Source: Eledone cirrhosa (lineage: Eukaryota). Taken from it: a stretch of 64,000 nt of DNA. The stretch spans positions 217,000,001-217,064,000 of the forward strand of contig OZ024743.1 of NCBI GenBank assembly GCA_964016885.1, written 5' to 3'. This document shows positions 3,668 to 62,442 of this stretch, in pieces. The notes under the pieces were generated by a model. The model searched no databases. It was given only the letters and a program-made list of their open reading frames with translations, and was not told the DNA's origin. Position numbers and translations under genes: made by a program. Numbering within the stretch: the first letter of the stretch is position 1; each line of letters starts with the position of its first letter.

Positions 3668-3800
3668 GATATTAATAAATGGAAACTATATTTATAAAAC
3701 CATATTTATTCCATTATACATATTTCAGGGATACCAAATTAAATTATGGTATGCCTTCATCAGACAAAATACAATATATAACAGTTTTACAAATAAGCTT
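3668..3800 (-). mobile_element. Family F Penelope-like terminal-repeat fragment next to (TA)n
   Basis: Shares ATAAATGGAAACTATATTTATAAAACCATATTTATT with 27140-27345 and 61815-62068; contains a hammerhead motif. Confidence 0.7.
3708..3770 (-). ncRNA. type I hammerhead ribozyme motif (family F)
   Basis: Minus strand attttgt-CTGATGA-aggcatacc..ggtatccct-GAAA-tatgta-TA-atggaat. Stem I is 7 bp (with G-U pairs), stem II is 8 bp, and both core boxes are intact. Confidence 0.8.
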
Positions 3801-4013
3801 TGACGTACACTTTTAAAATGCAACCATTATTTTTGGAAGCCATCTGGATAGTGAATTGTTTATATTATTTTAATAAGTCTTAGTGTTAAGGACAATTAGA
3901 AATATATATATATATATGAATTTATATATATATATATAAATATATATATATATATATATATATATATATATATATATATATATATATATATATATATATA
4001 TAAATATATATAG

Positions 4014-4624
4014 ATTATGAAGAGAGAAGAAACATTTAGATATAATTAGTAATAAAATGTATCATACCTAAACTGCTCCTAGATTCCTCGACTACGTAGT
4101 TTCGTGGCATAAACAAAAACAATACATCATAAAGATATAGAGTCCTTGCGAGGTCTGCCGACCTATCAAGAGGATACCTCATTTTACAAGTCTCAAGAAC
4201 GCGTCTACACGACGTGAGAAAGAATCCCAAAAGGCGGAGGGGGAGATAGTCACGCGATACCACGGTCGAGAAACAGAGCTAAGCCTCTTATAACTCCGAA
4301 GAAAATACCACGGAGGCGGAGGGGGGTATTTATATCGAAGCCGTAGAAGAGGTGGTGAAGGGGGAGAGAAGTATGAGTAATGGAAGCTTTCCAGCAGTCC
4401 CCACACCTCAAAGATTGCTCGACCAGAGGGAGTTATTAACAATATATTTAGAAACACAGATACATGCGGACACACACATATACATGAATGCATCCGCACC
4501 CAACCGCGAGTTAAGGGTGCCAAATTCACCGATGTTGCCCAATGAATGACTGGGACAGACCAATCCGGTTGAACTAGACTAAACCAGTATCAGAGTTAAA
4601 AATACATTATGAAGAGAGAAGAAA
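4014..4624 (-). mobile_element. Family G TA-flanked element: ~592-bp unit with a 19-bp terminal direct repeat and a hammerhead-like remnant
   Basis: ATTATGAAGAGAGAAGAAA at 4014-4032 and 4606-4624; GC-richer than its surroundings; flanked by (TA)n on both sides; minus strand ~4135-4084 reads tcttt-ATGATG...-GAAA-CTACGTAG-TC-gagga. Confidence 0.6.
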
Positions 4625-4793
4625 TATATATATAAATATATATATATATAAATATATATATATATATGTGTGTGTGTGTGTGAGTGTGTACATGTATGTG
4701 TGTGTGTCTGTGTATTTATGTTTGTATATATACATATAAATGTGTACATATATATATATATATATATATATATATATATATATATATATATAT

Positions 4794-5007
4794 AAGTTTT
4801 AATATAGAAGAGCTTCTACAGGACTAGAACTGTTTCATTCGTGAGAAATCATCAGGGAGCCTGATGATCGGCTACCTGATGATTTCTCACGAATGAAACA
4901 GTTCTAGTCCTGTAGAAGCTCTTCTATATTAAAACTTTTATACATTATGCATTGAGTACCCTACTTACTGTGGTTACCTCCGATTCAACCCGGAATATCT
5001 TATGTAT
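4794..5007. mobile_element. Family A fold-back element (63-bp perfect inverted arms) with hammerhead motifs
   Basis: Arms 4794-4856 and 4875-4937 are reverse complements; element abuts (TA)n on the left. Confidence 0.8.
4870..4920 (+). ncRNA. type I hammerhead ribozyme motif (family A); mirror copy on the minus strand at ~4811-4862
   Basis: ggctac-CTGATGA-tttctcacgaat-GAAA-cag-ttctagtc-ctg-TA-gaagct. Stem III is ACAG/CTGT, predicted cleavage follows GUA (4914), stem I has one mismatch. Confidence 0.7.
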
Positions 5008-5825
5008 TGGCGTCCCCTTTGTTTACGTGTCCCAACGACTTTTTTTAGCCGTTGTTCGCACCAACCTGAGGCATATGGCCCTTAAAGCGATGAAATGCCT
5101 GGGACGGTTGGAGGGTCACTGATGAAGGACCTACTTTTTCACATGCCCCACCATTTGCAACGGGCAGCCTATTATTATCATATTTACACATCATTTTTCT
5201 TCTGCTGCCACACGTCTGTTCGTTTTTACCCTTTCTAGCAGTCTCTCTCTCTGTTAGCCTCCTCCTCAACTTTCACTCACTCATTCACTGTCACTACCTT
5301 TCCTCCTCCTCTTTCCTCCTCCTCCTTCAAGTTTGACCTGTGTGTAATTCTTTTTTCGCGCGGTCTTGACCAAGCTGGTATGGAAATTTTTTTCTCTCTC
5401 TCTCTTTCGTCTGCGACTTCACAAAACTTATGTTTACCGAATTCGTAGACCAGACCCCTTTATCTTCTTCTTCTCTCTTTTTTTCCCCCCGTCAAACTTG
5501 GGCGAAATTCTTTCCTTGCTCACATTTCAACCAGGTTTGATGGTCTTTTGTCTCTTGTTCACGATTTCACCGAGTTTATATTCATAGAGATCTGGGACTT
5601 GTCTATTTCTTCTCACTTTCCGTTGCTTAAACTTTTTTGTTTGTTACCCTGGCGTCCCCTTTGTTTACGTGTCCCAACGACTTTTTTTAGCCGTTGTTCG
5701 CACCAACCTGAGGCATATGGCCCTTAAAGCGATGAAATGCCTGGGACGGTTGGAGGGTCACTGATGAAGGACCTACTTTTTCACATGCCCCACCATTTGC
5801 AACGGGCAGCCTATTATTATCATAT
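5008..5825 (+). mobile_element. Family B element: ~1.27 tandem units of a 642-bp repeat (pLTR+tail / retrozyme-like), ending in (TA)n
   Basis: 5008-5183 is repeated, apparently identically, at 5650-5825; homologous to 11578-12452. Confidence 0.85.
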
Positions 5826-5912
5826 ATATATATATATATTTTAAAAAAATAGAGGTGTGACACACGAGTTGTGATATATATATATAAGGAATATATATAT
5901 ATATATATATAT

Positions 5913-5998
5913 TTATTAAAATAACAGATTAAAGTTTAAGCAAAGAATCGCTGCTTTCACTCTTTGGATTTTAGTCTTGAAATTTATTATTATTACTA
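5913..5998. mobile_element. Family E short inverted-junction fragment between TA tracts
   Basis: Left part matches the minus-sense arm and right part the plus-sense 3' end of 55645-56167. Confidence 0.75.
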
Positions 5999-60267: not shown

Positions 60268-60453
60268 ATTGTTCCTACTTTTGACAAATGGCGAGCTTTT
60301 ATCCCAGTATATTACTGGTACTTTATTTTATCGACCCCATAATGATGAAAGGCAAAGTTAACCTCGGTGGGATTTGAACTCAGATCATAAAGGGACGTAA
60401 CTCTTTGCGGTAAAGCATGGCGTCCGACCCTCTACCAATACTGCCAATCTACC
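60268..60453 (-). mobile_element. tRNA-derived SINE
   Basis: Near-full-length match to the other copies, including the A and B boxes. Confidence 0.92.
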
Positions 60454-61492
60454 TAAGATTTTTATACCCTACACTATTTTGTCAAAGAAACTCACTTTTG
60501 ATATTATATTTCTACTCCTAAGGCTTACGCTGATGCATTTAAATCATACGTATACATGTGCAAAACCAACCATTTACGCACACACTCCACTCCAGATATG
60601 CACAGAAATATACTCGCAGCTAGGTTAGATCTAAACACTTAAACACGGTTTGCTTCAATATACTGGAAGAGTACCTATTGCTATACCGACAAGTACATAT
60701 ACACACACATAGGCTTATTTATTCATTTATCGTAAATACATACACGTATATATATATCCTTTATCTGTGTCTTTGTTTATTTTCATCATCATAGCTGTTC
60801 TCATACACCCCTGTTTCCTTTTGTTCCTACTTTTGCTGTCAGAAAACACGCACCTATGCAAGCAAACACATTCACCACACTCAGTCGCACACCAATACAT
60901 ATGTATATCTTGTCTTCCAATTCATCAGATGTATATGACACCGTTAATGAGTTTTCTGAACAACTCTTCTCTAGATCTTCACTATTTAGCATTGGCCTTA
61001 TCGATTATTTGTAGAATTCTCATCCACGAATATTTACACCTTACTTTTAACAAGATAGAAAGCAGGTGTTTGATTTCTAGCTTCTTAGATAGAACGAGTT
61101 CAATATTTTATTTTGGCAGATAAGGCTCTCATGAGACTATACATATGCGCGACACAGTTGTCTGAAATATCAAAATTTCTTTTAAAATAATGTACATATG
61201 TGTATACATATAAATTATATGTAAACTAACACATACGTATATATCTGCATATCTCTCTCTCTCTCTCTCTCTCTCTCTCTCTCTCTCTCTCTCTATATAT
61301 ATATATATATATATATATATATATATATATATATATATATATATATATATATATATATATATATATATATATATATATATATATATATATAAATATACAT
61401 CACACACATACACACATATAAATATGTTAATCATGTATACAAAGAAAGATCTCATGAAATTAAACTTCGAGCTCATATATATATATATATAT

Positions 61493-61710
61493 AACGAAGG
61501 AAGTGTGGTAAGGAACCAGATGGGCCATAATGCACCAGAGTACTCAATACACAGACCAAAGATAATTGTATGATATATCAGTACGTATATAGAAGTATGA
61601 CTAAAAAGGTTGCTATTAAAACAAGTAGTAGAGTGGGTAACAGGAAAATGTTCAAGACCCCCGTCGAAACGGCTCGACCTCTGCCGTCGGGGTCTTGAGC
61701 ATTTTCCTAT
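61493..61710. mobile_element. Family C fold-back element containing a 76-bp captured local sequence
   Basis: Matches 26838-26930 and 17150-17277; GAAA-CGGC..GCCG-TC; insert 61549-61624 equals 58284-58359. Confidence 0.85.
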
Positions 61711-61719
61711 ATATATAGA

Positions 61720-62068
61720 TAAGCAAAGATTTATTTAATTAGTTGGTTATTCAACAAATTTATTTATAATAGATTCGAAGCACTCTACAGTTTTCTTCGG
61801 GAGTATAATATCAATAATATTAATAAATTGAAACCATCTTTATAAAACCATATTTATTTTATTATATATATTTCAAGGGTACCAAATTTGTTGGTACGTT
61901 CTCATCATATAAAATACAAAAGTTGTTTTATAGATAGTGACATATTCAAAAACAAGAACTTATCGTTTTAAATATTTTATCTGATGAGAGCGTACCCAAA
62001 TATGTTGGTAACCTTGAAATATATATAATAAAATAAATATAAAGATGGTCCATTTATTAATATTATTG
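61720..62068. mobile_element. Family F fold-back element with two divergent hammerheads
   Basis: Arms ~61810-61916 / ~61973-62070; flanked by TA tracts. Confidence 0.85.
61974..62034 (+). ncRNA. type I hammerhead ribozyme motif (family F), the best example in the window
   Basis: attttat-CTGATGA-gagcgtacc..ggtaacctt-GAAA-tatata-TA-ataaaat. Stem I is a perfect 7 bp, stem III is palindromic, predicted cleavage follows A62027. Confidence 0.85.
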
Positions 62069-62240
62069 ATATATATATATATATATATATATATATATAT
62101 ATATATATATATATATATATATATATATATATGTATGTATGTATGTATGTATATATATATATATATATATATATATATATAATATATATATATATATATA
62201 TATATATGAGAAAAACCATAGACCCTCGATCTCAACTCTA

Positions 62241-62277
62241 CTTTTGAAAAGCAGAAGAACTGCGAAACCGGTAGAGG
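62241..62277 (+). ncRNA. degenerate minimal hammerhead in a TA-flanked insert (62208-62290)
   Basis: ctt-TTGAAAA-gcag-aagaa-ctgc-GAAA-ccgg-TA-gag. Stem II and palindromic ACCGGT are intact; the first core is two transitions from CTGAAGA. Confidence 0.5.
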
Positions 62278-62442
62278 AACCAAATAAATATATATATATT
62301 TTTTTAAATAAGACTCCAGTTGCATTTTCGATTTCATCTTTTTTCTTTATACTTTCACTCGTGTAGGACACCTCGGTTATTTTTCATTTTGTAAAAAAAC
62401 CTCACTTTCTAATATATAAATAAATATATATATATATATATA

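Follow-up and report, generated by a model that had tools for sequence, protein, structure and literature searches.

What are the short inserts that crowd the (TA)n tracts of a 64,000-nucleotide stretch of the Eledone cirrhosa genome (assembly GCA_964016885.1, contig OZ024743.1, positions 217,000,001 to 217,064,000; hereafter the window), and how do they come to be there? A preliminary description had read all seven insert families (A to G) as fold-back, hammerhead-carrying copies of Penelope-like elements (PLEs) or retrozymes. A PLE origin is supported for C, D, E and F and very likely for A, but B and G are not truncated PLE ends. We instead explain the inserts as 5'-truncated, often folded-back copies of several coding PLEs alongside the non-coding tandem elements B and G, where family B features a conserved hammerhead motif of the scrambled type SGC that is predicted to cleave its own RNA; for this explanation as a whole we estimate a probability of roughly three in four. 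What emerges is a known PLE system in which a rare ribozyme topology appears in a new genomic form.

The family B copies of the window are as follows.

5008..5821, plus strand: family B, non-coding head-to-tail copy with a period of 642 nt and 1.27 units, 3' end at (TA)n
5061..5128, plus strand: type-SGC motif of B, predicted cut after 5075, GAAA at 5092-5095, CUGAUGA at 5119-5125
5703..5770, plus strand: type-SGC motif of B, predicted cut after 5717, GAAA at 5734-5737, CUGAUGA at 5761-5767
11580..12449, both strands: fold-back of a second B subfamily, long arm 12200-11580 (minus), short arm 12202-12449 (plus) with a 40-nt tail
11592..11659, minus strand: type-SGC motif of the second subfamily, CUGAUGA at 11601-11595
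12330..12397, plus strand: type-SGC motif of the second subfamily, CUGAUGA at 12388-12394

In family B the cleavage site (5074-5075) comes first, followed by GAAA (5092) and then CUGAUGA (5119), which is the block order of type SGC. The preliminary description missed this order, as well as the variant cores of C, E and G. Type SGC is a non-circular permutation that, according to the available text of Eckert et al. 2023 (PMC10085705), was found in no known organism's genome, while environmental examples cleave in vitro. A de novo scan returned 140 SGC motifs in 1.26 Mb of fetched loci, which are enriched for these families by selection, and none in 3.79 Mb of shuffled sequence; a first, looser scan had given six shuffled matches in 2.17 Mb. 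The de novo scan also recovered families with unrelated stem sequences. Across the 3.0-Gb genome, two patterns that contain the GAAA and CUGANGA blocks only, with no site block, gave 15,613 and 987 matches (0 in reversed controls), and a third SGC class (I) falls outside both.

The site block was checked in 73 regions taken from the first 100 matches listed for the B class and the first 30 for the second, GUC class. Among distinct B-class motifs, 69 of 80 had it at the one predicted offset, and 24 of 30 GUC-class motifs had it at offsets 16-18; motifs without it are mostly truncated or inverted there, and some are degraded. A site block downstream of the core was rejected, as this search gave only weak, wobble-rich matches (2/80 and 6/30) at scattered offsets, three of which share one offset in one subfamily. 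The cut-site triplet is AUA in 51, AUC in 17 and UUA in one of the 69 B-class motifs, and GUC in 16 and GUU in six of the 24 GUC-class motifs. The search pattern itself accounts for part of the core conservation that it shows, and within-family conservation plots did not single out the core.

Covariation provides a further line of evidence. In an alignment of 13 hand-picked representatives, both sides vary in 16 of 21 modelled pairs (stem I 7/7, stem III 4/6, a fourth helix 5/6, stem II 0/2), a result reached in 0 of 500 shuffles, although the sequences are related and such shuffle tests are inflated, a point to which we return. Sliding the alignment as a control left 36-46% paired versus 79% in register, and a partner-swap test gave 10.71 versus at most 10.38 in 1,000 swaps. 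Stem II is paired in 57.7% of cells. Outside this genome, one pattern scan gave no metagenome matches; four viral and two metagenome matches from other pattern scans lacked the site block and were judged to be chance.

The fourth helix forms between the strand 5' of the site block and the strand just before stem I, and extends stem III. It reaches at least 5 bp in 62 of 69 B-class copies and ends within 1 nt of the 6-bp stem I in 50, with duplex energies of -8.3 versus -5.7 kcal/mol for shuffled sequence in the B class and -9.8 versus -5.4 kcal/mol in the GUC class. The gap between the fourth helix and stem I is 0-1 nt in most B-class copies and 5-6 nt in family M. Published type SGC has a helix that links stems I and II at their far sides, for which inspection revealed no conserved pairing here. 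In the hammerhead fold, the ends of the fourth helix and stem I point away from each other. Because the gap is only 0-1 nt and yet these ends point apart, the core may assemble between neighbouring monomers, in the manner of dimeric PLE and retrozyme hammerheads.

The alternative is that the ribozyme folds and cleaves within one monomer, the fourth helix being either an alternative to this fold or compatible with it, and it differs from our explanation only in this cis or trans step. Environmental type-SGC ribozymes do cleave in cis, some with a zero linker between distant helix ends (PMC10085705, in the available text), and the 5-6 nt linker of family M also favours cleavage in cis. The length of the fourth helix, its proximity to stem I and its below-shuffled energies in both classes speak for trans assembly, where the geometric objection to cis cleavage is one that we infer. 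We give the cis alternative slightly less than an even chance, and the choice between cis and trans at this step is a coin toss. A bolder version, in which more than 16,000 PLE-mobilised retrozymes carry a permuted hammerhead that cleaves only as a neighbour's CUGAUGA strand enters the site/GAAA hairpin, is tentative, and we hold the odds to be somewhat against it.

The family B motif shares with the type SGC of Eckert et al. its block order of site, GAAA and CUGANGA, a conserved core, covarying stems I and III, and a short link from stem I to stem II. It differs in belonging to a chromosomal retroelement at high copy number rather than to metatranscriptomic RNAs, in a link of 7-10 nt rather than approximately 3, in a stem II of approximately two pairs, and in a fourth helix that extends stem III rather than joining stems I and II (PMC10085705, main text as available). 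Its supplement gave no match for 'Octopus'. A literature search, with subscription papers mostly outside it, found no report of type-SGC hammerheads in a genome or retroelement, and the available text of a 2026 paper (PMC13725137) mentions permutations by citation only.

Families B and G both consist of non-coding head-to-tail monomers, of 642 nt and 593 nt respectively in the window. The G features are:

4014..4623, minus strand: family G copy of 1.03 units, non-coding, with a tandem monomer of 593 nt
Within it, minus strand: G hammerhead, type I, with a U3-A8 core, a palindromic stem III and a predicted cut between 4090 and 4089

An initial assignment of G to the plus strand was dropped on end structure. 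Its core is UUGAUAA in 18 of 20 copies, and the window copy also deviates at position 9; a U3-A8 core has been described in Schistosoma PLEs (PMC4209133, in the text available). Eleven SGC-type monomers span 497-804 nt with 65-72% pyrimidine on the sense strand, and each has one sense CUGANGA and no ATG open reading frame (ORF) longer than 107 amino acids. B and G resemble non-LTR (long terminal repeat) retrozymes (Cervera and de la Pena 2020, PMC7229834; Li et al. 2026, bioRxiv 10.64898/2026.07.22.740005; both as far as available), which are likewise non-coding head-to-tail monomers with one hammerhead each, with a GC content of 38-47% and co-existence with PLEs as further likenesses (PMC7229834). 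The differences are that non-LTR retrozyme monomers are approximately 170-400 nt long (PMC7229834), that their hammerhead is canonical type I, an order kept by G with its U3-A8 core and abandoned by the SGC motif of the B class, and that PLE-type tails, inversions and TA targeting are clear in the elements described here.

Under a satellite or MITE-like (miniature inverted-repeat transposable element) origin, B and G would not be mobilised by PLEs and would have drifted into TA tracts with an incidental motif. They contain no ORF, no autonomous partner of either was identified, and the copy at 11580-12449 resembles a terminal-inverted-repeat element. The same copies have a polar structure, with 3' ends fixed at two sites approximately 40 nt apart and 5' ends spread, their tails and inversions match those of the coding PLEs, and their covariation exceeds chance, so we regard this origin as very improbable. 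A candidate autonomous SGC element, suggested by two B-class pairs at a distance of 2.9 kb, was rejected because what lies between them is a piece of an unrelated PLE on the opposite strand. Contigs from three sequencing runs of one study contained the family and gave no information on ends or circles.

The junctions of these elements suggest how they are copied. TA is found at the 3' junction in 70/74 copies of F, 56/60 of B1, 27/27 of B3, 20/20 of G, 36/43 of M and 40/56 of H2, and within 75 nt of 57 of 69 pattern-picked B-class motifs. Each family has two preferred 3' ends at (TA)n, approximately 40 nt apart in B and G, and widely spread 5' ends; B and G, with inversions as well, have the end anatomy of PLEs. 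The junctions precede UA-alternating patches of the RNA, with microhomology of at least 4 nt in 49/54 (F), 32/36 (B3), 7/14 (B1) and 54/63 (D) junctions, and of 3 nt in 36/45 C junctions, where the background is 1-5% of positions. The start of reverse transcription lies 7-67 nt downstream of the B motif. Of 69 B-class copies, 67 run past the predicted cut, although these extents may be overestimated. As copies run through this point without piling up there, the template would be uncut or re-joined RNA.

We propose that a PLE endonuclease nicks (TA)n and that an internal UA-alternating patch of the RNA, 3-6 nt long, likely pairs with the free DNA end, from where reverse transcription would start at one of two sites. 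A start at either site would account for the tail and the unequal arms, and a second priming event for the inverted arm. Two internal start sites explain the tail of the Poseidon PLE in vitro (PMC11167929, in the portion available). B and G likely borrow their enzymes from a PLE, and tandem transcripts of B-type elements may be cut to monomers, closed to circles and copied past the cut site.

A number of results weigh against this explanation, starting with the relatedness of the 13 aligned sequences and the missing partner of B and G. Stem II of the B class is weak: its first pair is G-U in 58 and G-A in 11 of 69 motifs, its second is G-A in 68 of 69, and 36 B3 motifs have G-A at both. Isolated SGC motifs folded without pseudoknots do no better than shuffles (z -1.3 to +0.4), and a covariance-model check, proposed in the preliminary description, failed to support the hammerheads, as Rfam returned no hammerhead family at E ≤ 1 for the window or E ≤ 10 for 3668-5821. 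The only Rfam matches were miRNA-like hairpins, all under gathering scores. The 5' ends of 69 B-class motifs do not accumulate at the predicted cut, and just 7 of 16 pairs of tandem neighbours have members that resemble one another more than they do the nearest other copy. On the side of priming, microhomology is weak in M and H2 (0-3 nt) and scattered in A (3/15), false anchors in low-complexity DNA are part of the counts for G, E, M and H2, and there are about two independent priming sites per family. Poseidon in vitro also uses a start site lacking homology to the target and can dispense with its ribozyme (PMC11167929, available portion).

These data bear on a second alternative, in which the SGC motif is a hammerhead-derived fold under selection that does not cleave alone in the B class, serving as a signal for PLE-protein binding or loading, or cleaving with protein assistance. 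A stem II with one wobble or no canonical pair in the most numerous class, genomic copies that continue through the cut site and start downstream of the motif, and the protein-assisted, dispensable Poseidon ribozyme (PMC11167929, as above) are all compatible with such a role. The cut-site triplet has nevertheless remained NUH, and a normal G-C pair closes the helix in the GUC class, with two G-C pairs in stem II (24/24 and 23/24) that are found in this class only. A non-cleaving signal is unlikely on this balance, and self-cleavage of B RNA remains our preferred prediction.

The coding families were followed upstream of their 3' ends, where the preliminary description had expected PLE ORF masters. 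Coding sequence for reverse transcriptase (RT) or the GIY-YIG endonuclease (EN) was reached for C, D, E and F, whereas no intact master was found for A. Family D was said to be contiguous with a GIY-YIG fragment, and this was borne out at 55159-55464 on the minus strand. With this remnant as query, 26,266 first-look candidates were obtained, of which 150 were scored; the candidate total is not a copy number. One of 20 long D loci fetched encodes a 1,130-amino-acid ORF with RT (YVDD, DKS), a CX4CxxC linker and GIY-YIG with CCHH, which has a named homolog in an Octopus vulgaris protein (68% identity). Pfam matched no family for this ORF or for the remnant, and D was recognised by motifs. The Hydra-clade features (no CCHH, a CxCX5C linker) are not those of D, which fits a Neptune/Nematis-type PLE, the two clades not being separated from each other here. 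D shares with these the RT, CX4CxxC linker, GIY-YIG with CCHH, microsatellite bias and a minimal hammerhead (stem I of 2 bp), and differs in having DKS for DKG and a long Asn-rich N-terminal insert. This low-complexity insert lies N-terminal to RT (L021:3340-3830).

For F, a 518-amino-acid RT part with RWR and DKT was recovered, with EN behind a stop in that copy; an Argonauta protein is a named homolog (38% identity). A C-terminal RT part and EN in a single frame were recovered for E, and a thumb-EN part for C, while the RWK/DKT region of the N-terminal RT part was recovered for F but not for A, C or E. C, E and F feature a CxCX5C linker, no CCHH, and CxxC and CxH around the EN end, which supports their assignment as Hydra-type PLEs. 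A is very likely also of this type, as three copies translated, of 30 fetched, have inverted Hydra-like coding pieces at the 5' junction. The proposal that several (TA)n-targeting PLE lineages co-exist is supported by these assignments, and partial tandems, 5' inversions and an optional tail were all observed, as in PLE anatomy. More PLE families share the same TA nests (L050 and L219 flanks, L380:2435-3570). One is related to D and has a textbook minimal hammerhead, and another, a third PLE type, has a different endonuclease.

The canonical hammerhead motif named in the preliminary description is found, among the families, only in A, D and F, with variant cores in C, E and G. The core is CUGAUGA in 30/30 copies of F and in 19/22 anchored copies of A (8/30 unanchored), UUGAAAA in 24/27 anchored copies of C (three unanchored), and CAGAAGA in 28/28 anchored copies of E (two unanchored), where stems I-III look intact (window 55644-56167, loci L071-L100). 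The E core is possibly an undescribed variant of uncertain activity; Lunse et al. 2017 reportedly dealt with PLE hammerhead variants. A U4A variant was not found in the available part of PMC3088659.

The (TA)n-inserting Hydra clade with hammerheads, which the preliminary description mentioned, is indeed in print and includes Hydra-1_Obim of Octopus bimaculoides, which carries a hammerhead and prefers (TA)n (Craig et al. 2021, PMC8557442 and its supplement, as available). C, E, F and probably A share with these elements a C-terminal GIY-YIG without CCHH, CxCX5C, DKT and RW(K/R), along with (TA)n targets, type I hammerheads, tails and 5' inversions. As tails, 5' inversions, hammerheads and TA targets are published there, the PLE frame is right but known. 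At least four families co-exist in this genome, and the UUGAAAA (C) and CAGAAGA (E) cores differ from the cugaNga of the supplement table (PMC8557442, available part).

The positions and families of the window inserts proved real by self-BLAST of the window and by mapping onto natural long copies. The window contains 113 (TA)5+ tracts, and 16 of the 18 named positions lie within 15 nt of one, compared with 8.1% of random positions. The two exceptions are B at 5008, whose start adjoins the tail of A and whose 3' end (5821) touches TA, and F at 27060, which has a short TATA run only. Head-to-head palindromes with unequal arms account for approximately 11 of 18 inserts, but B at 5008 and G at 4014 are head-to-tail tandems, and F at 3668, C at 26838, E at 26984 and the insert at 12541 have a single arm. 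In every family the sense strand does point outward towards TA. The insert at 12541, assigned to C in the preliminary description, comes from a sister family of C, with 82-86% to the best matches in the genome. The claim that most inserts carry CUGANGA..GAAA..UH applies in full to five of 18 (A 4794, D 36633, D 54717, F 3668, F 61720) and not to the other 13, of which six have complete variants (B twice in scrambled order, E three times with CAGAAGA, G with U3-A8) and seven lack a complete motif (D 11080, E 5913, F 27060 and every one of the four C inserts). The remaining inserts are:

3667..3901, minus strand: Hydra-type PLE 3' end of family F, with a canonical type I hammerhead at 3771-3707
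4795..5007, plus strand: family A fold-back in which each arm has a canonical type I hammerhead; left arm 4859-4795, tailed right arm 4872-5007
5913..5996, no single strand: family E fragment, inverted 52 nt plus 3' end, without a complete ribozyme
10865..11065, minus strand: family E fold-back, Hydra-type PLE 3' end, hammerhead core CAGAAGA
11082..11507, plus strand: family D fold-back with a 105-nt SINE-like (short interspersed nuclear element) piece, 11111-11216, at the turn, without the ribozyme region
12541..12650, minus strand: sister family of C, 3' end
12681..12900, plus strand: an extra fold-back family absent from the preliminary description, with a canonical-order hammerhead in longer genomic copies
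17089..17276, plus strand: family C fold-back, Hydra-type PLE 3' end, with its turn within stem II and hence without the core block
26721..27347, no single strand: nest of an E tail (26721-26788), C (26929-26840), E (27051-26985) and an F fold-back (27071-27347)
36632..37220, no single strand: family D fold-back with two minimal hammerheads, core CUGACGA
54718..55497, minus strand: family D copy with C-terminal GIY-YIG remnant (55464-55159), 3' untranslated region, minimal hammerhead and short inverted arm
55644..56167, plus strand: family E fold-back
61494..62063, no single strand: rearranged C copy (61494-61709) and F fold-back (61725-62063), canonical hammerhead 61973-62035

The extra fold-back family at 12681-12900 has 372 first-look candidates in the genome. 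The SINE-like piece at the inversion point of the D copy at 11082-11507 possibly reflects a template switch; it belongs to a dispersed family with well over a dozen copies, including 11111-11216, 15058-15253, 15702-15898, 18016-18138, 19216-19531, 28001-28203, 41943-42298, 43091-43293, 59196-59325, 60263-60453 and others. Short repeats are nested in TA tracts at 62208-62390 and 5840-5874, both of which recur in fetched loci, and at 61425-61474 with 62777-62826. A tandem array with a period of approximately 37 nt occupies 38725-38956. At 2746-3630, a remnant that we take to be mariner-like has 105-bp terminal inverted repeats (94%) and a broken transposase-like frame (3167-3562), for which Pfam gave no family.

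The two fixed 3' ends at UA patches offer a direct test of target-RNA pairing as a mode of priming in (TA)n-targeting PLEs, unlike the case of Poseidon. As searches based on type I order, the CUGANGA core or Rfam models miss B, C, E and G, censuses of animal ribozymes and retrozymes may undercount. If cleavage proves to occur in trans only, this would be the first chromosomal type-SGC ribozyme and a switch that cuts multimers while sparing monomer circles, and its non-circular permutation would have arisen by collapse of a tandem hammerhead array in which the site came from one unit, the GAAA from the next and the CUGAUGA from a third. The many diverged families within one host genome amount to a mutational series made by nature, and they come with a life cycle, so that such ideas can be tested there.

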